A DNA stretch of 64,000 nt, from positions 32,001 to 96,000 of the forward strand of contig QCUR01000001.1 of assembly GCA_003208875.1 (NCBI GenBank), written 5' to 3'. This document shows, in pieces, positions 981 to 22,279 of this stretch. The translations under genes and the position numbers were made by a program. The DNA is from Prochlorococcus sp. AG-679-M23. Lineage in GTDB: Bacteria > Cyanobacteriota > Cyanobacteriia > PCC-6307 > Cyanobiaceae. Within the stretch, counting starts at the first letter, position 1; every line of letters starts with the position of its first letter. The notes under the pieces are model-generated. The model saw only the letters and a list, made by a program, of their open reading frames with translations. It did no database searches and was not told the DNA's origin.

Positions 981-1200
981 GGTTTCACGTGGGTTTCACG
1001 TGGCGGAATACGTGTTATAATATGTTCAGACCCATTGATATAACTGTCTTTTTTATTAACCTTTTTGGAGGGACTATTGAGTGGGAGTAACTAAAGAGGT
1101 ATAAACCTTGTCATAGTCTAAAAAACTCGGTTAAACGTGAGAATCTCTTATCCTATTTGCAATGGATCTCAACAACGAGGTTAAACGTAGGTTACACGTG
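981..1200 (+). repeat. att-like junction A: 11-bp repeats flanking a guaA 3'-end copy
   Basis: GGTTTCACGTG at 981 and 992; CCATTGATATAAC at 1032; core GGAGGGACTATTGAGTGGGAGTAA (GGTIEWE*) 1067-1090; AAACCTTGTCATAG 1103-1116; GGTTAAACGTG 1129, GGTTAAACGTA 1179, GGTTACACGTG 1190. Confidence 0.8.
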
Positions 1201-1263
1201 AGGGTAAAATCTCATCTCTATAGAGAAATCGTAGAGTTTTAAATTTCTCTACACCTTAATAAA

Positions 1264-1581
1264 TTAGTTAATTATTTTTTTAATTTTTTCTAAATTCCAT
1301 TTATCAAATATTAATTTCATTTCTCTTTCGTAGTATCTTACTTTTTTTGAGAAAGGTAGTTGTTGAATAATTATCCCAAAGGGAAATTTAAAAAAAGAAG
1401 AAACATAAACAATATAAAACTCGACAAATGAAGGTTTTGGTGGGAGAGGTAAATTTTTTAAATATGCCCAATCAATGCATGGTTTTAGTTGCTGATCACT
1501 AGCAGCAATATTTTTTCTACATCTCCAGTAAGAGAATAGATAAATGCCAATAAAAATCGGTAAAGGAAGAAGTCGTAACAT
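1264..1581 (-). CDS. Hypothetical protein with hydrophobic N-terminus
   Basis: 105-aa ORF with ATG start; no recognisable motif. Confidence 0.6.
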   Translation of the reverse strand: MLRLLPLPIFIGIYLFSYWRCRKNIAASDQQLKPCIDWAYLKNLPLPPKPSFVEFYIVYVSSFFKFPFGIIIQQLPFSKKVRYYEREMKLIFDKWNLEKIKKIIN

Positions 1582-1741
1582 TAAATATCAAGGATGATTT
1601 TTCTTCTCATTTACTCATATACCTGTTTGATAATAAATGGATAGTTTAGTTTTTATGGAAATTTTGCTTAAATGATTTTTAGAATTTTCAATTATTTTAT
1701 GCGATATCTCTATACAAATCTCCTAGATTTTTAAATCAAAA

Positions 1742-1951
1742 TCATTCAAAAAGTATTTCTTCAGGATTTCTGTATTGAATTAAACCTTCATATTCTGAAT
1801 CAACCTTTTTAAGATATTCTGCTACATGCTTATAACCTTGATCAAAAACAATTTCAATAACCAATTCAGCAAGTTTTTTGCCATTAATTAACAAAAGAGG
1901 ATATTTATCTTCAAGAATTTCAATCCTTTATCTGTTTTGTGAAAAGAAATA
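1742..1951 (-). pseudogene. C-terminal remnant of an Mrr-catalytic (MspJI/AspBHI-like) restriction endonuclease
   Basis: Minus frame reads YFFSQNR*RIEILEDKYPLLLINGKKLAELVIE...YEGLIQYRNPEEILFE*, resembling the EDxYPxxLxxGxxLAE...RPEEIL terminus of that family; in-frame stop at 1928-1930 and no N-terminus. Confidence 0.6.
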
Positions 1952-2000
1952 GTGTGTAAAAATCACACTGAATTGAAATCTTTTTCATTAGATTAAAAGA

Positions 2001-2070
2001 ATCAGAAACTCCTCACACACTAATTTCTGATCACTAAACGCCCCGATTCGAAAGAATTAGGGTGTTTTTT
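2001..2070 (+). ncRNA. Yfr1/Yfr10-like sRNA
   Basis: Conserved undecamer ACTCCTCACAC at 2008-2018 in hairpin ATCAGAAA/TTTCTGAT; -10-like TAGATT at 1989-1994; intrinsic terminator with T-run at 2037-2070. Confidence 0.8.
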
Positions 2071-2170
2071 AATGCAATTAAGTCTTTTAGGTCGTAACTG
2101 GTATATGTGACAATTAAGTATTATTACTCACCCCTTCCACGAAAAAGAAAGATATGTAATGAATATTTTT

Positions 2171-2267
2171 GTGTGTAGGAGAGGTTTTGCTGAAACAGTG
2201 GAAACAAGGAAACACTTGATTTAGTAAAACCAGGAAATGACCTCTATAAATAGGGATCTTTTTTTTT
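2171..2267 (+). ncRNA. yfr2: Yfr2-family (Cyano-1) sRNA
   Basis: 5' GTGTGTAGGAGAG; stem 2183-2194/2220-2231 enclosing two GGAAACA motifs (2200, 2208); terminator hairpin plus T-run. Confidence 0.85.
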
Positions 2268-2307
2268 GCCTAATTTTTTCGAACGAATACTTAAATTTAA
2301 ACAAAAT

Positions 2308-2331
2308 AAAGGGGGATTTGTTTGCCCCTTT
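2308..2331. terminator. Possible bidirectional terminator hairpin
   Basis: AAAGGGG...CCCCTTT inverted repeat. Confidence 0.45.
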
Positions 2332-2509
2332 CGATTCTTATGTAATCATTATCTAAAAAGTCGGTGAGTGCTACTTACTCCTGAATTATTTCTACTCCTG
2401 TTGAATGGGAAAATATAGTCGTGACAACCACAAAGCACTTCTATTCGAGTAAAAATACTCTATGAATTTTTAGTTAATAGGTAGAAAATAAAGATATATA
2501 GGAGGTTTT

Positions 2510-2692
2510 ATGAAACTATTTAATCAATTTAATATCCTTCCAAAATATTTAACGGCATTTAACTATGCAGGTTTAAATCTGAATGAAACTCCAAACGAAC
2601 TTGAGCAATGTCCTATAGAGTTTCAAACTTACTGGGATAAAGAATGTAGGGATAATCCAACTAATCAGAATTGTTTAATTTATTGCGACTGA
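2510..2692 (+). CDS. Small protein with CP12-like C-terminal cysteine pair
   Basis: Strong AGGAGG RBS; ends WDKECRDNPTNQNCLIYCD (C-x8-C-x-IY-x-D as in the CP12 C-terminus). Confidence 0.7.
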   Translation: MKLFNQFNILPKYLTAFNYAGLNLNETPNELEQCPIEFQTYWDKECRDNPTNQNCLIYCD

Positions 2693-2736
2693 GTTATTAA
2701 TTTTTATTATTTATCTAATAAATTTTTTTAAAAAGT

Positions 2737-2894
2737 GGTTTCACACGGGTTTCTCACGAGATAATATTTAAAATTATCCCTTGAGATACACTGCTATGAC
2801 TGTATTTTTAATTTTAATTATTGGCGGTAACATAGAGTGGGAATGAAAATAAGCTATAGACCTAGTTATAGTTAAAAAAAATAGGTTTCAAGTA
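2737..2894 (+). repeat. att-like junction B
   Basis: GGTTTCACACG 2737, GGTTTCTCACG 2748; CACTGCTATGAC 2789; core GGCGGTAACATAGAGTGGGAATGA (GGNIEWE*) 2823-2846; AGACCTAGTTATAG 2858-2871; GGTTTCAAGTA 2884. Confidence 0.75.
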
Positions 2895-3003
2895 GGTTTC
2901 AAGTAGGTTTCACTTAGAAAAATTTGTGTTATAATTAACTCAAAACCATTGCTATAACTAATTTTTTATTCACTTTTTTGGAGTGACTATTGAGTAGGAA
3001 TAA
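2895..3003 (+). repeat. att-like junction C (terminal, decayed guaA-end copy)
   Basis: GGTTTCAAGTA 2895, GGTTTCACTTA 2906; CCATTGCTATAAC 2946; core GGAGTGACTATTGAGTAGGAATAA (GVTIE*E*) 2980-3003; no repeats on its right side. Confidence 0.75.
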
Positions 3004-3047
3004 AAAATACTTTAATTTTTTATCTTTAACTTTTTTACAAAATTATT

Positions 3048-3761
3048 ATGGATGAAACCATTAAATTAAGTAGGTCTACTGTTGAAAAATATCTTAATTG
3101 CCCTAGATGTTGCGTTCTTGATAAAAAACATAAAATAAAACCTCCATCATTACCATTCACCTTAAATATTGCTGTAGATAATTTATGTAAAAATGAGTTT
3201 GATTATTATCGTGAAAGACAGGAATCTCATCCTTTATTTATTGAGCATAATATTGATGCTGTACCTTTTAAACATAAAGATATAGATATTTGGAGAAGTA
3301 ATTTTAAAGGAATAAGATATAAATCTACTGAACATAATTATGATTTTGGTGGTGCGGTCGATGATGTCTGGGAAAAAAAGAATGGAGAGTTAATTATTGT
3401 TGATGTAAAAGCAACATCTAGAAATAATTTTGATTGGTTTGAAACTTTCAATAAATATGATTATGCAAAAGCATATAAAAGACAATTAGAAATGTATCAG
3501 TGGTTATTTAGAAAAAATGGTTTCAAAGTTGCAGATGAAGCCTATCTTCTTTATTTTAACGGAAAAAAGAATGAGAAATTTTTTAATAATCAGTTAAAAT
3601 TCGATGTGCATTTTATTAAGTTAAAGTGTTCTGCGACATGGGTAGAAGGCAAAGTTATTGAAACAGTAAAACTGCTCAGATCTAATATGTTCCCTTCACC
3701 ATCTTTTAAATGTGAATATTGTAATTATTTAAAAAAGCGTTGGCAGTTGTCACAAAATTAA
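3048..3761 (+). CDS. PD-(D/E)XK nuclease, RecB/Cas4-like
   Basis: GAVDD...IIVDVK...QLEMY nuclease motifs; N-terminal CPRC and C-terminal CEYC. Confidence 0.85.
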   Translation: MDETIKLSRSTVEKYLNCPRCCVLDKKHKIKPPSLPFTLNIAVDNLCKNEFDYYRERQESHPLFIEHNIDAVPFKHKDIDIWRSNFKGIRYKSTEHNYDFGGAVDDVWEKKNGELIIVDVKATSRNNFDWFETFNKYDYAKAYKRQLEMYQWLFRKNGFKVADEAYLLYFNGKKNEKFFNNQLKFDVHFIKLKCSATWVEGKVIETVKLLRSNMFPSPSFKCEYCNYLKKRWQLSQN

Positions 3762-8907: not shown

Positions 8908-10683
8908 TTAGTAGTGATTAGCAACTTTCCTATGATGAACGGCTGTTTTACAGGATAAATCAGAAACGCTCCCATTTTTAACTATACCGTAAATAATCCA
9001 ATGATCTGGAGTTTCTAATCGTGAACTTACTTTACAATCTAAAAATGCGAGAGAATCAGAAAGTACTGGTCCACCATTTGCGATATTGTTCACTACATCT
9101 ACATCAGCAAATCTATCTGCTCCAGGTGCAAATCTTTTTAAAAAATGTCTAAACATTTTTTGATAGTTATCTTCTCGTAAGATATTAACTACAAAACCTT
9201 CTCCAACTTGCATATAAGATTCAATAGCTCTATCTTTTGCTACTGCAACTGTAATGCCTGGCGGACTGAAACTTGCCTGACTGACCCAGCTTGCTACCAT
9301 CGCGCTTTGTCTAAAAGTCGAACCTTCTCCCTGGCTAGCTGTAACTACATATAAACCCCCACTTAATCTCCCTAAAGCTTTATCCAGATTTGAATCAAGG
9401 CTTTTCATTGAAGCAATATTTTTCTTCTTATTAATTAATTGTCCCAAGTCGGTTCCAGCTTCTTCAAATTGTTGATAGATAATAGGATCTGGAATATTTT
9501 TAACTCTTAGAGGTGAAAAGGCTTCTTTTTGTCCTAATTCTCTCAACTTGCTTGCTAATGAGTCTATCGGTTCATCATTTCCTCCAAAAGCATCGTAAAC
9601 TGCCGTAAATTGTTTAGGCTTTAATGCGGCAAAAAGAGTGCCAAAAGACTCTTTTAATTCATTATCAGACTTAACTGGCCAGGTTGGGATTACTACGGCT
9701 TTAGATTCTGAAATTAAACCTGTTAATTCCTGAGAATCTGAAGATCTTAAATCAATTAATTGAACCTGTGCATCTGCCTTACTTATTCCGTGAGATATAG
9801 CTTGACTTAATCGATCACAATATCCATAATCACTGATGTAGCAAACAGATACAAATTCATTGCCTTTACTCTTGTTACTACTCCACTCTGAATACTTTTC
9901 TTTCCAAAAATTTACTTGATTGTGAAGTAATGGCCCATGACCCACAGCTATAGTTTTAAGTCTAGGTAACTTATCTATTCGTTTGATAGCTTGTAGAACA
10001 CTTCTTGCGTTCGGGCCCATAAGGCAATCGTAATAAAAACGAAAATCTTCATAAATTTCTTTTTGATCATTATCAAAAAATTCATCAGAGCAATAATGTA
10101 ATCCAAAAGCATCGCATGTGTATAAAACATTCGTACCGTGATCGTAGGAGAAAATGGTATCTGGCCAATGTAAATTTGGCGCACTTATAAATTCAATATT
10201 ATGATTTACTCCACTTGTGAGGTTAGTTCCAAGATCTAAATATTGTCCACTTTTTACTTCTAAACTTTTAAATGGAATATGTATTTGATCCTCAATAAAT
10301 TTAAGCGCTAATTTTGAACCAACTACTATTATTTGTGGATTAAGAGTTAAAAGGTTTCCAATTAAACCTGAGTGGTCTGGCTCTGTATGACTTGTAATTA
10401 AATAATCAATTTCTTTGGGATTTACTTCTCTAAGTAATTGCTCAAACCATAGTTTTTCAAATTTAGCGTGGCTTGTATCAATTATTGCTAGTTTTTGGCC
10501 CTTAATGATAAAACTATTATAAGTAGTTCCATTTCTTAATCCAAATTCAATATCAAATCTACTTCGATCCCAGTCAAGAGATCTAATTGCAATTGTGTCA
10601 TCTGCAAAAACTTTCTGTTGCACAGATAATTTTTGCTCAACTTTATTCATCTCTGAAGTACTTGTTTTTGCAGAAGTTATCAT
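8908..10683 (-). CDS. flv3: Flavodiiron (diflavin) flavoprotein, Flv3-type
   Basis: Canonical HTEPDH, HWPD, CDAFG, GHG ligands; ATG at 10683 preferred as start. Confidence 0.88.
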   Translation of the reverse strand: MITSAKTSTSEMNKVEQKLSVQQKVFADDTIAIRSLDWDRSRFDIEFGLRNGTTYNSFIIKGQKLAIIDTSHAKFEKLWFEQLLREVNPKEIDYLITSHTEPDHSGLIGNLLTLNPQIIVVGSKLALKFIEDQIHIPFKSLEVKSGQYLDLGTNLTSGVNHNIEFISAPNLHWPDTIFSYDHGTNVLYTCDAFGLHYCSDEFFDNDQKEIYEDFRFYYDCLMGPNARSVLQAIKRIDKLPRLKTIAVGHGPLLHNQVNFWKEKYSEWSSNKSKGNEFVSVCYISDYGYCDRLSQAISHGISKADAQVQLIDLRSSDSQELTGLISESKAVVIPTWPVKSDNELKESFGTLFAALKPKQFTAVYDAFGGNDEPIDSLASKLRELGQKEAFSPLRVKNIPDPIIYQQFEEAGTDLGQLINKKKNIASMKSLDSNLDKALGRLSGGLYVVTASQGEGSTFRQSAMVASWVSQASFSPPGITVAVAKDRAIESYMQVGEGFVVNILREDNYQKMFRHFLKRFAPGADRFADVDVVNNIANGGPVLSDSLAFLDCKVSSRLETPDHWIIYGIVKNGSVSDLSCKTAVHHRKVANHY

Positions 10684-19330: not shown

Positions 19331-20569
19331 TTGATTCAGCTTGAGACTAATTGGTCATTTGTGAGCGATGGTGAAGAAAAACCTGATGGTTTTTCTTTCG
19401 CAGGGATTGCTGCGGGATTAAAGAATTCGAATAAGAAAGACTTGGCTTTAATATTAGCCCCAGAGAATAGCATTTGTAGTGGCTTGTTTACACAATCAAT
19501 AGTTCGAGCATCCTGTGTAGATATTTGTGAACAAAGGATTAAAAAGTCTTCAGGTCTTATAAGAGCAATATTAATAAACTCTGGACAAGCAAATGCCTGT
19601 ACAGGTGATTATGGTATTCAACATACTTTGTGTGCTACGAAGGAGGTCTCACAATTATTAGGAATAAATGAAGAAGAAGTTTTAATGTGCTCAACGGGTG
19701 TAATTGGTATACCCATTCAAATAAAAAATTTAATTGATAATTTACCTAAATTAGTCAAGGAGTTAAAAACAAATAGTTTTCAGAATGCTGCAGAAGCTAT
19801 TTTAACTACTGATTTAGTTGACAAAAAAATAACTATAGAAACATTTATTGAAGGGAGAAAGGTAAAGATATCTGGTTTTGCAAAAGGATCAGGAATGATT
19901 TATCCAAATATGGCTACTATGTTGGCTTTTGTTACATGTGATGTTGGTGTTGATAAAGAACTTTGGGACAAGATGATTTCTATTGCTGTTAAAAAGTCTT
20001 TTAACGCTATTTCGGTGGATGGAGAGACAAGTACTAATGATGCCTTTATAGGAATAAATTCAGGGAAAAAAATTGATAAGAAATTTTTATCAAAGATTCA
20101 AACAGGTATCGATATTGTATGCCAAAGTTTGGCAAAAAATATCGCTAGAGATGGAGAAGGCGCAAATTGCTTGCTAGAGGTTTTGGTTGAGGGAGCAAAG
20201 AATAATTCAGATGCAATTAAGATAGCTAAATCTATATGTAATTCTTCACTGGTAAAAACTGCAATTCATGGTTGTGATCCAAATTGGGGCAGAATTATTT
20301 CAGCTGCTGGTAACTCTGGAATTGATTTTAAATTAGATGTCGTTGATTTATATATTGGAGACTTTCAGATTTTGGAAAAGGGTAAGTTAAATAAATATGA
20401 TTCCAAAAAAGTTGCCAATTACATAAGTACAAAAATGAATGGTAAATATTTAGTTGAGGATATAGTACGTATAGCTCTTAATCTTAATTCTGGTTCAGAA
20501 AAAGGAACTGCTTGGGGTTGTGATTTGTCTAAAAAGTACGTTGAAATAAATAGCGAGTATACGACCTAA
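19331..20569 (+). CDS. argJ: Bifunctional ornithine acetyltransferase/N-acetylglutamate synthase
   Basis: NSGQANACTG, KGSGMIYPNMATML, DGETSTND, DPNWGR; ends VEINSEYTT. Confidence 0.97.
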   Translation: MIQLETNWSFVSDGEEKPDGFSFAGIAAGLKNSNKKDLALILAPENSICSGLFTQSIVRASCVDICEQRIKKSSGLIRAILINSGQANACTGDYGIQHTLCATKEVSQLLGINEEEVLMCSTGVIGIPIQIKNLIDNLPKLVKELKTNSFQNAAEAILTTDLVDKKITIETFIEGRKVKISGFAKGSGMIYPNMATMLAFVTCDVGVDKELWDKMISIAVKKSFNAISVDGETSTNDAFIGINSGKKIDKKFLSKIQTGIDIVCQSLAKNIARDGEGANCLLEVLVEGAKNNSDAIKIAKSICNSSLVKTAIHGCDPNWGRIISAAGNSGIDFKLDVVDLYIGDFQILEKGKLNKYDSKKVANYISTKMNGKYLVEDIVRIALNLNSGSEKGTAWGCDLSKKYVEINSEYTT

Positions 20570-20649
20570 CCCCAAATCCCCTCTGGCACAGTTGATTACA
20601 GAGATATCATAAAGCAGATACCACTAAAATACCACTAAATTTTCATCTA

Positions 20650-21876
20650 TCAATATTTAAAGTTATTTTTTCTGAGGTCTCTATTTAGTGAATTGAAATC
20701 AGTTTTATTTGATGCCAAATCCTTTGACTGCACACTTCCTAGTGCGACTTTCTCTAATCTTTCTAATCTTGCTAAAAGTTGTTTGTTTGTTTCTTCAAGA
20801 GAAATAATTTGTGTCTCAAATTCTTTTTTCTCCTTCATACTAATAAGCGTAGGTTTTACTGGTTTGCCTAATTGCCAGATAAATCCTGCTCTAGCAGAAA
20901 ACTGATCTTCAAAATCACCTGGATAATCTTGACCAGGCATTGTCATTGAAGCAGCGTAATTAATTGATAGTTTTTCATTAACTTTTGAAGCGCAACCTCC
21001 AGAAAAAGCAAAATCTCCTCCATGTGTTCCTGTTCCAAAACCACATGCAAGAGTTGTATCAGTAGGAACTGTTGGTAAACCTGTTAAAGCAGCACTCAAT
21101 GCTCCAACATTATTGATTGATTGTTCTACATCTCTACCATTTATTAATAATTTAGTTCCATTTGTATAGTCAATAGGAATTGGATTTCCTGCAGCATCTT
21201 TTGCATAAACTTTTTGTCTACCATTCTCCTCTTTTGTAATCCAAGAGTTTTCACCTATATGAAGTTCATTCCCTACATATTTAACAAGACTTTTACCGGT
21301 TGACCCTCCCTGACTTATTCCATCATTATCAATTCTAAGTAATTCATCAGTTCCTTCTCCTCCCAATGAAACGAATTTCGTATCTGAGGAATCATCACAG
21401 TCACTGTCTGTTGAGTCACATTTTTTCTCAATAGTATCGTTTAATTTCTGTATCACACCCATATTGATTGGAGTTGCCCCGCTTGGTAATCCTGTTACAT
21501 CAATGTATCCTTCAAATGCGTTTGTATCGATATCATATTTCCGATATCTTTTTCCTTGACCGCCCCCACGATCCCCTTCAAGAAAATAAATTTTTCCATT
21601 ACGCTCATCAACAGTAAAGTCATTAGATGTGAAATTATTAGTACTCACATCTGGAAATATATCTTGTTTTAGTAAAGTTACTGCACCATTTGAAGAAAGT
21701 TTATATAAATTTGAAGTTGAATCTCCTCCATCATTTACTTTAGTAGGATCTTCAGCAACGAAGAATCCTAAATCAGTGGTATTTGTGGAAACTTCACCTG
21801 CTAATGAAGTAAAAGGCGATAAAAGTAATGTAGAAGTAAAAAGAGAACTAACAAGTTTTTTTGAAAAGTTTTTCAT
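20650..21876 (-). CDS. Secreted protein with YadA-like membrane-anchor domain (putative adhesin)
   Basis: Signal peptide MKNFSKKLVSSLFTSTLLLSPFTSLA; GALSAALTGLP...CGFGTGTHGGDFAFSGG...ARAGFIW anchor-like region, then a coiled-coil tail. Confidence 0.7.
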   Translation of the reverse strand: MKNFSKKLVSSLFTSTLLLSPFTSLAGEVSTNTTDLGFFVAEDPTKVNDGGDSTSNLYKLSSNGAVTLLKQDIFPDVSTNNFTSNDFTVDERNGKIYFLEGDRGGGQGKRYRKYDIDTNAFEGYIDVTGLPSGATPINMGVIQKLNDTIEKKCDSTDSDCDDSSDTKFVSLGGEGTDELLRIDNDGISQGGSTGKSLVKYVGNELHIGENSWITKEENGRQKVYAKDAAGNPIPIDYTNGTKLLINGRDVEQSINNVGALSAALTGLPTVPTDTTLACGFGTGTHGGDFAFSGGCASKVNEKLSINYAASMTMPGQDYPGDFEDQFSARAGFIWQLGKPVKPTLISMKEKKEFETQIISLEETNKQLLARLERLEKVALGSVQSKDLASNKTDFNSLNRDLRKNNFKY

Positions 21877-22249
21877 GAGACACAACTTTTTTAAAAAGTG
21901 ATATTGACTTATTAATAATTTAAGTGTAAATACTTAATGATTTAACTATTGCTTAATATTTGTTATTTTTCCAGAAAAATAACTTTTTATGTTCTTACAT
22001 AAGATATTTAATAATTATCAAATTGAGGCAGAAAAAAGTTAAATTAAATAGCAAGTTAATCTTTTAATTAATACTTAAAAAATAAATACTAAACTTAAAA
22101 AATATTTTTAATTGAAACTTTCCATACCGGTTTTATAACACCTATGTAGTGGTATCAATGGATTTCACTTGTAAAAAAAGTTTTGTACCACTAAGATACC
22201 ACCAAATTTCCGAGTAAAAACCTTGTCATAGCAATGCTTTTCAAGGTTG

Positions 22250-22279
22250 GTTGAAATCAATAGCGAATACACTACTTAA
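22250..22279 (+). repeat. Duplicated argJ 3' end (attR-like)
   Basis: GTTGAAATCAATAGCGAATACACTACTTAA encodes VEINSEYTT*; 25/30 identical to 20540-20569. Confidence 0.9.

Follow-up and report, generated by a model that had tools for sequence, protein, structure and literature searches.

Cis-mobilizable elements (CIMEs) are bounded by attachment (att) sites, lack genes for recombination and transfer, and are found in streptococci stacked in tandem with autonomous integrative and conjugative elements (ICEs) or integrative and mobilizable elements (IMEs) at one bacterial attachment site (attB). To our knowledge, Prochlorococcus has no plasmids, conjugation, or natural competence, and still its genomic islands turn over quickly. 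The window analyzed here is a stretch of 64,000 nucleotides of Prochlorococcus sp. AG-679-M23 (contig C1, C1:32001-96000), and its first 3 kb very probably hold the distal three junctions of an array in which four non-autonomous integrative cassettes follow one another from the 3' end of guaA, the GMP synthase gene.

Two described systems come close to this locus. According to the literature on proteobacterial guaA islands (Song et al. 2012; ICERspD18B, PMC7775301), these elements insert at the last guaA codons and are flanked by direct repeats around ACAATNGAGTGGGAAT; strands are exchanged at the 8-bp GAGTGGGA, quoted as the place where the integrase cuts (PMC7775301, citing Song et al. 2012). 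They carry a P4-type integrase and AlpA, often with conjugation genes, and the element restores the end of guaA (PMC7775301). Our array is similar in its insertion at the guaA 3' end, the restored gene end, and the GAGTGGGA direct repeats, and differs in its picocyanobacterial host, in having no P4-type integrase and AlpA, and in that most of its units are integrase-less. The tycheposons of Prochlorococcus (Hackl et al., bioRxiv 10.1101/2020.12.28.424599) combine cargo with an inward-facing tyrosine integrase at one end, a module for replication, and a serine recombinase, the latter two small; as elements keep integrating at one site, older material is pushed into an island, which also holds decayed remnants. 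Seven tRNA or transfer-messenger RNA (tmRNA) sites are listed there, together with unnamed "non-tRNA-associated" recombinases, while the words guaA and GMP have no occurrence in the preprint text, although the journal version and supplements may name guaA. The same source attributes integrase-free island DNA to flanking material captured by imprecise excision, with integrase-carrying elements accounting for no more than a few per cent of the DNA in islands, and its sections describe no att-bounded cassettes or arm repeats such as those of the guaA array. None of the four cassettes of AG-679-M23 has the tycheposon gene set, whereas four other guaA loci (L081, L168, L169, and L170) do, with the integrase on the guaA side, a Rep-like gene, a gene of about 320 aa, and the serine recombinase at the far end. 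The attachment site is nevertheless guaA and not a tRNA or tmRNA gene; a tRNA-linked island was considered here and rejected, as no tRNA gene was found in the 16 kb of C1:20001-36000.

Cores on C1 were located by a six-frame search for IEWE*, which returned five. The first belongs to a complete + strand guaA (528 aa, C1:22718-24304) ending in TIEWE* and preceded by cbiD and an aminotransferase gene. The array starts at this genuine stop codon and occupies C1:24305-35003 (10.7 kb), in the order guaA, cassette 1, core C1:26141-26164, cassette 2, core A, cassette 3, core B, cassette 4, core C, and flank. The initial annotation, made from the window only, had proposed that a + strand guaA with right-arm motifs behind it should lie upstream; gene and motifs are both present, although not "just left of the window," since guaA ends 7.7 kb before the window start with two further cassettes between. 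Behind its stop come a box, two copies of GGTTACACGTG, a 39-bp spacer, two more copies of GGTTACACGTG, and a TCTCTATAGAGA block, in the same order as the motifs to the right of core A in the window. The three 24-bp cores that had been annotated are confirmed by direct reading (A, 1067-1090, GGTIEWE*; B, 2823-2846, GGNIEWE*; C, 2980-3003, GVTIE*E*), and the full count rises to five with C1:24281-24304 and C1:26141-26164. Equally exact are the tandem 11-mers starting at 981, 2737, and 2895 (86, 86, and 85 bp 5' of the cores, again by direct reading; the second 11-mer before core B is degenerate) and the 12-bp boxes at 1033-1044, 2789-2800, and 2947-2958 (34, 34, and 33 bp 5' of the cores). The extra 11-mers past cores A and B also hold (1129, 39 bp past A; 2884, 38 bp past B); the adjoining box was said to be reversed, but its motif is near-palindromic, so that either orientation may hold, and in a GC-richer relative (L081) the two boxes are direct repeats. 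The core pattern occurs three times in the window against a mean of 0.00 in 100 shuffles, and the 11-mer (up to one mismatch) four times against a mean of 0.34, with 0 of 100 shuffles reaching four. In the whole genome, all nine exact copies of GGTT[TA]CACGTG fall within 8.9 kb (C1:24343-33200, + strand), as do 13 of the 20 copies found when one mismatch is allowed.

In the mechanism that we propose, a guaA-specific family of picocyanobacterial tyrosine integrases would exchange strands at GAGTGGGA. An element would enter as a circle carrying its own attachment site (attP), composed of a P arm with two tandem 11-mers, about 30 bp, a box, about 20 bp, the core (O), and a P' arm with a box, two plus two tandem 11-mers, and then the TCTCTATAGAGA inverted-repeat block. 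Integration would restore the guaA end from the element's copy and shift older insertions to the right, and serial integration would therefore make the array read guaA-O-P' / cassette / P-O-P' / cassette ... / P-O-B', where B' is the host half of the site. Each cassette would carry a former attP split over its two ends, with its own arm-repeat variant, and it is likely that cassettes are moved by a matching integrase in trans or, in cis, by a neighboring autonomous element. The features of the window read as follows.

1 to 1066: distal end of cassette 2 (C1:26165-33066, about 6.9 kb)
3 to 848, - strand: sulfotransferase gene of cassette 2 (PF13469)
981 to 1002, + strand: P arm of cassette 2, two tandem 11-mers GGTTTCACGTG
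1013 to 1021, + strand: extended -10-like motif TGTTATAAT in the cassette 2 P arm, oriented across the core
1033 to 1044, + strand: P-arm box CATTGATATAAC
1067 to 1090, + strand: core A, P-O-P' junction of cassettes 2 and 3, with the 8-bp overlap GAGTGGGA at 1079-1086
1091 to 2822: cassette 3, 1.73 kb
1107 to 1116: box' of the cassette 3 P' arm
1129 to 1139 and 1179 to 1200: 11-mers of the cassette 3 P' arm
1149 to 1165: spacer motif of the same arm
1215 to 1226: palindrome TCTCTATAGAGA of the same arm, with its inverted partner at 1243 to 1252
1264 to 1581, - strand: open reading frame (ORF) of cassette 3
2001 to 2080, + strand: Yfr10 small RNA (sRNA), cargo of cassette 3 (79.5 bits)
2169 to 2236, + strand: Cyano-1 RNA, cargo of cassette 3 (69.9 bits)
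2510 to 2692, + strand: ORF of cassette 3
2737 to 2758: degenerate P arm of cassette 3
2789 to 2800: box of cassette 3
2823 to 2846, + strand: core B, junction of cassettes 3 and 4, overlap GAGTGGGA at 2835-2842
2847 to 2979, + strand: cassette 4, without cargo ("empty"), 157 bp between the two core starts
2862 to 2871: box' of cassette 4
2884 to 2916: three 11-mers of cassette 4, P' and P arms fused
2927 to 2935: TGTTATAAT of cassette 4
2947 to 2958: box of cassette 4
2980 to 3003, + strand: core C, P-O-B' junction and end of the array, overlap mutated to GAGTAGGA (2992-2999)
3004 to 3761, + strand: native B' flank, with a gene of the PD-(D/E)XK nuclease family (3048-3761), which at empty sites is the gene next to guaA

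Comparison with relatives documents both the insertion and its boundaries. Seven genomes of the genus with a single core were compared, four of which (G004, G027, G137, and G015) have an empty site, with the PD-(D/E)XK gene 45 to 76 bp after guaA; the other three carry diverged P'-type arms behind guaA. The empty site of G015 (L178) has the same sequence as the guaA end of AG-679-M23 joined to the flank right of core C. Core C had been taken for the displaced original gene end, and this is correct for the stop codon and right flank, which are the host B' half, but not for the left half (GGAGTGACTATT), which is element-derived; the core is composed of this left half, the mutated overlap GAGTAGGA, and the host's original stop and flank. 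To its right there is only native flank with no comparable motifs, as had been noted. We give hardly any credence to the idea that the repeats arose when the end of guaA was duplicated as a segment, or serve the host as regulatory repeats (CACGTG boxes), and are not mobile DNA. The palindrome CACGTG is indeed part of the 11-mers, and a housekeeping gene lies upstream of them, but empty sites are without all these features, the repeats vary by cassette and travel with the cargo, and the cargo is unrelated between genomes: 64 of the 78 complete cassettes that we mapped in 51 loci are singletons at 80% coverage and 80% identity.

The crossover point was mapped at four left and three right junctions of the cassette with mreB (cassette 2 here) and at two plus two junctions of a C5-methylase cassette (L040 and L042). 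To the left of the mreB cassette lies cassette 1 in this genome and guaA directly in L037, L038, and L044. On the right it borders on cassette 3 in this genome, on the native flank in L037, and on a different cassette in L038. At every junction compared, the sequence left of GAGTGGGA was that of the left neighbor (ATC versus ATT) and the first base right of it that of the right neighbor (G versus A), and in the methylase cassette identity switches likewise at both GAGTGGGA edges. Because identity switches at these two edges, strand exchange is, to judge from the alignments, confined to the 8 bp of GAGTGGGA, within the guaA codons E-W-E. Eight base pairs is a usual overlap length for tyrosine recombinases. 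The turnover of cargo exactly at the cores, predicted by the initial annotation for relatives, is what the junctions of these shared cassettes display. They also make it improbable that homologous recombination swaps cargo with cores and arms as patches of homology and with no integrase acting on the integrase-less units. The arms of one repeat family are indeed similar over about 90 to 200 bp between different cassettes, but the same 8-bp switch is found at every junction examined, the adjoining base on each side is already context-specific, and left of the core the homology between a first-position copy (guaA coding sequence) and a second-position one (foreign P arm) is at most about 15 bp.

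Site-specific insertion at guaA is also documented by autonomous relatives, which have a tyrosine integrase of about 455 aa, a Rep-like gene, and a small serine recombinase at the same site. The metagenome contig L081 (GC 0.48) contains, in this order, the guaA end, a P' arm with GTTTCACGTG repeats, a 457-aa tyrosine recombinase (PF00589, E = 4.7e-10), a 101-aa ORF, a Rep-like gene, genes of 317 and 635 aa, a resolvase, a formyltransferase, a P arm, a core, and GC-rich native flank. Strong homologues of its integrase were found in four of 150 genomes of the genus (G099, 62% identity; G009, 59%; G030, 41%; G023, 36%), each directly behind guaA; the element of G030 is a clean single insertion of 6.5 kb, while that of G099 is followed by integrase-less cassettes with different arm repeats. 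A separate metagenome contig of 16.5 kb (L116, GC 0.48) holds two near-identical 8-kb integrase-bearing elements in tandem with a full P-O-P' site between them. In a scan of one genome per species, ten loci were retrieved (six Prochlorococcus sp., a Cyanobium metagenome-assembled genome [MAG], a Synechococcus sp., a Shimia sp., and a Stappiaceae MAG), and guaA ends about 200 bp before the integrase in nine of them, the exception being Shimia. Six of the ten were analyzed by tblastn and the other four repeat contexts already seen in the comparison of genus genomes; the ten may overlap the 150-genome set and are not counted as independent. The same design, guaA-adjacent integrases with tandem 11-bp arm repeats, had been anticipated, and L081 has the GTTTCACGTG repeat itself. 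The proposal that small elements inserted successively into the guaA end is thus supported by guaA upstream, by turnover at the cores, and by guaA-adjacent integrases in relatives.

The integrase family comprises 167 clusters (E <= 1e-5) in the protein collection searched, almost all of them unnamed. Searches in Pfam, NCBIfam, and PHROGs gave only generic integrase or Xer-like matches, the Xer-type NCBIfam ones far below cut-offs; none of the three assigned the relatives' integrases to the P4 type, and no AlpA-like match appeared among the neighbors scanned. Residues R276, K313, R384, and Y416 are invariant in an alignment of 21 members and would represent the catalytic Arg, Lys, Arg, and Tyr. 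Among known structures, Tn1549 Int (E = 1.7e-9) and lambda Int resemble the predicted fold most (pLDDT 81.5), and a separate N-terminal domain is predicted at residues of about 10 to 90 (four strands and a long helix). The attachment site is likewise similar to the attP of the heterobivalent integrases of lambda and Tn916/Tn1549, with about 230 to 300 bp, direct arm repeats on both sides at fixed distances, and a short-overlap core, and this geometry suggests that the integrase may bind the 11-mers. Unlike in lambda, no IHF or Xis partners were identified, and the N-terminal domain has no clear likeness to known arm-binding domains. In the Stappiaceae MAG (L193), a guaA with 50% identity precedes an integrase of 363 aa that is 27% identical to the guaA-integrase family and has no NCBIfam match, and a second core, ATTGAGTGGGAATAA, lies 5 kb downstream; guaA targeting by related enzymes therefore extends to alphaproteobacteria.

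In AG-679-M23 itself, the array is without an integrase, as annotated, and no homologue of the cognate enzyme was found in the whole genome. PF00589 has no match on C1 and matches elsewhere in the genome only on C4 and C6. The one clear tyrosine recombinase is a conserved 386-aa gene between hemH and cobO, on another contig, and the guaA integrase matches this conserved core-gene integrase weakly (43% over 42 aa), the one link seen to the tyrosine recombinases of tycheposons. These results bear on the "integron-like" label of the initial annotation, which stands as a functional analogy only. A true integron platform, with a resident integrase that captures promoterless cassettes via folded attC-like sites, would account for an array of small integrase-less cassettes and a repeated recombination site of fixed geometry, yet we regard it as very improbable. 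There is no integrase in or beside the array, nor an intI, attI, or Pc; the att sites act as duplex DNA, and folding the six junction strands as single-stranded DNA gave z values from +1.17 to -1.39, with 0 of 6 exceeding shuffles by two standard deviations, i.e., no attC hairpin folding. Furthermore, the cassettes are multigenic with genes on both strands, and where there is an integrase it resides inside a cassette-like element.

Most mapped cassettes have no mobility genes of their own. Seven of the 78 hold an integrase with its conserved companions, and the other 71 gave no tblastn trace (E <= 1e-4) of the integrase, Rep-like, ~320-aa, ~635-aa, or serine-recombinase genes. Each cassette tends to carry its own arm repeats. 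Taking the 61 cassettes that measure at least 400 bp and have a GC content below 0.40, we compared the best 22-mer of each arm. The P' and P arms of one cassette share a mean of 17.1 identical positions of 22 (at least 20 of 22 in 26 of 61 cassettes), compared with 13.9 for the two arms flanking one core (0 of 22 pairs) and 14.6 for random arm pairs (39 of 394). The differences are significant by the Mann-Whitney test (p = 8e-4 within cassette versus across junction; p = 1e-6 versus random), values that are overstated given that the genomes are related. At least eight families of arm repeats could be distinguished (TTTCACGTG, TTACACGTG, TTTCCCGTG, TTTCCCTCA, TTTCACATG, TTTGTTGCG, TTTGTCACG, and TCTCACCC), and integrase-bearing elements with different integrases carry different repeats. 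The likeness to CIMEs is that the same scaffold flanks integrase-bearing elements and integrase-less cassettes; unlike CIMEs, there is no conjugation, and the cassettes are many, small, and diverse, have their own arm-repeat variants, and far outnumber the autonomous elements.

Shuffling of cassettes and their transfer between diverged lineages are apparent from shared units. The mreB cassette is second in this array and first in L037 and L038; in L040, the methylase cassette takes the second place of five, and in L042 it is the only one. The former is 98.8% identical where the 1.5 kb of the guaA 3' region is 96.9% or 93.3% identical, and the latter is 97.4% identical between genomes with guaA only 82.7% identical. 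Metagenome contigs add three further joints: in one, cassette 1 is missing and the guaA stop leads straight to cassette 2; in another, cassettes 3 and 4 are missing and the flank begins at core A; in the third, guaA meets the flank, as at an empty site. Mobilization in trans, together with some vehicle between cells, is what we infer from these data, because arm repeats match within a cassette but not between the two arms that meet at a core, identical cassettes are found at more than one array position, and a cassette remains 97.4% identical where guaA is 82.7%. As separate observations, cassette 2 is 98.4 to 98.8% identical among three genomes and is covered by metagenomic and metatranscriptomic contigs; the RNA-library contigs cover it with few differences, which suggests that it is transcribed.

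Several points weigh against a mobile array of this kind. This genome has no cognate integrase, two of the three junctions in the window are degenerate, and there is no sign of activity. The junction mapping relies on two cassette families and single-base differences, and the genomes under comparison are relatives of one another rather than independent samples. Arms match poorly in 35 of the 61 cassettes, many of which may be dead. The arm pattern had 0 matches in viral contigs. The N-terminal domain of the integrase, folded alone (pLDDT 75), gave a best Z of 6.2, with no arm-binding domain of the lambda or Tn916 kind among the 50 matches listed, which speaks neither for nor against arm binding. 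Finally, the circular junctions that the initial annotation had proposed to look for were not seen in metagenome data, neither in three contig runs, in which rare forms are dropped, nor in a raw-read run of 47 mostly partial reads, and no excised circle was seen. One joint, labeled "goes back 1912," was considered as a circle and rejected, since its P arm is mosaic and it lies on the same contig as a "skips 1912" joint.

Part of this evidence fits a different history, in which once-autonomous elements were stripped of their mobility genes where they stood, have since been passed on vertically as dead scars, and are no longer mobile as units. Besides the poorly matching arms and the missing circle, cassette 3 has only 12 of 22 positions matching between its own two ends, the overlap of core C is mutated, and cassette 4 is empty. 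As a general account we consider it unlikely, if clearly the strongest competitor, since 71 of 78 cassettes have no trace of the hallmark genes, the same cassette appears at different array positions with exact core boundaries, and the methylase cassette is far more conserved than the guaA genes next to it. It is, however, likely to be true for some single cassettes, including cassettes 3 and 4 of the window. The site of cassette 3 has probably decayed, as its arms match so poorly, and the array of AG-679-M23 is probably inert now because it has no cognate integrase, the cassette 3 arms and the core C overlap are decayed, and the cargo of cassette 4 is lost. The P-arm 11-mers of cassette 2 match its own left-arm repeats (C1:26203-26285) in 21 of 22 positions. 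Empty units similar in make-up to cassette 4 (138 to 147 bp) were found behind guaA or a core in G026, G047, G003, G045, and G132, and G037 has the same spacing from core coordinates alone; their simplest origin would be a deletion between the directly repeated 11-mers of the arms.

We return to mobile cassettes at guaA as the preferred reading and to their distribution. The tandem 11-mer was found in 20 of 150 other genomes of the genus, with 0 in a reversed control. In all 19 of the genomes examined (G108 left out), the repeats are in an array that begins at the guaA stop; of 20 regions from these 19 genomes, 19 include the guaA end, and the 20th is the distal part of the G008 array on a separate contig. 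At least two exact cores occur in 52 of 150 genomes, compared with 8 hits in 151 genomes for the reversed control. A metagenome scan yielded 106 stretches, and 57 of the 78 loci examined hold the core. Among those without it, the five most GC-rich (GC 0.61-0.67) look unrelated. Seven metagenome loci with GC of about 0.48 to 0.51 carry the same scaffold. The geometry is kept across six full P-O-P' sites and in hosts from 31% to 48% GC. The motif TGTTATAAT recurs in P arms, and the 11-mers sit where a -35 element would be relative to it. A promoter scan called 9 sites compared with a shuffle mean of 11.5, TGTTATAAT not among them, and its role as an outward promoter is speculative. In the circle, transcription from it would enter the P' arm and the gene for the integrase, and it could act as a junction promoter under integrase control.

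A literature search for guaA integration in Prochlorococcus gave no paper on the subject, and one combining Prochlorococcus, GMP synthase, and integrase returned only a Rheinheimera paper. As far as the available sources show, the guaA target and its octamer (proteobacterial islands), serial integration (tycheposons), and att-bounded elements without mobility genes (CIMEs) were already known. New are guaA as a picocyanobacterial docking site with an integrase family of its own, the many and varied integrase-less cassettes whose lambda-type site halves are complete, and arm repeats private to each cassette, with such cassettes crossing diverged lineages. The locus displays discrete units with exact recombination-site boundaries, matched arm repeats, and no mobility genes, one of which moved between lineages whose guaA differs by 17%. 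With somewhat less than even confidence, we suggest that gene flow at this island, and perhaps at further islands of streamlined marine bacteria, runs mainly through integrase-less cassettes bounded by att sites, each keeping a complete attP with arm repeats that act as a barcode for one lineage of helper integrase. If true, a few rare autonomous elements could move a large and diverse pool of hitch-hiking defense, cell-envelope, and sRNA cassettes between cells, an integron-like function that relies on sites of the lambda type where housekeeping genes such as guaA and argJ end, and this would replace imprecise excision of flanking DNA as the origin of most integrase-free island material in Prochlorococcus. 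Should helper integrases act in trans, the pairing of integrase and cassette would be readable from the 11-mer, and the spread of restriction-modification, helicase-nuclease, and cell-envelope genes and of sRNAs would be explained in a highly abundant ocean organism. In any case, guaA adds a protein-coding attachment site to the published tRNA list of the genus, and its array is one route by which tiny genomes gain defense and surface genes.

Other gene ends appear to be used in a similar way. At the argJ 3' end (window 20540-22279), there is a cassette with the same site design, with tandem 11-mers ATACCACTAAA behind the gene end and, before a second copy of the argJ end, GTACCACTAAG/ATACCACCAAA and a box, AACCTTGTCATAG, that is nearly the guaA P' box. 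Weak matches to the guaA integrase in G056, G083, and G135 (L163, L164, and L165; about 490 to 505 aa, 20 to 24% identity) were considered as members of the guaA-site family and rejected, as the three follow another gene: they lie directly behind the orthologue of a flavoprotein-like gene (window 8911-10011, - strand, ending in ...HHRKVANHY), with no tRNA genes near them. This suggests that the end of the flavoprotein-like gene is a third protein-coding docking site.

Regarding cargo, cassette 1 (1.86 kb, between the guaA stop and core C1:26141-26164) contains an HsdS-like gene, and cassette 2, according to Pfam, an mreB paralogue, a murA-like gene, and genes for a lipoprotein and a ribbon-helix-helix (RHH) protein, small ORFs, and the sulfotransferase gene. 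Cell-wall and cell-shape genes are an unusual mobile cargo; the mreB and murA region covers C1:26681-30033, and the murA-like product has 541 aa with a C-terminal extension. That both are core genes of a rearranged chromosome was ruled out, because the genome has second copies elsewhere (mreB on C2, 87% identity; murA on C6, 54%) and the block is bounded by cores; they are cargo. In cassette 3, the depth of metagenome contigs peaks over Yfr10 and Cyano-1, as expected for multi-copy sRNA families. In L041, L048, L052, L087, and L168, many single-gene cassettes encode secreted tetratricopeptide repeat (TPR) proteins with a shared N-terminus, MKKRTAFIGAILSL, some of them fused to a peptidase_M10-like part.

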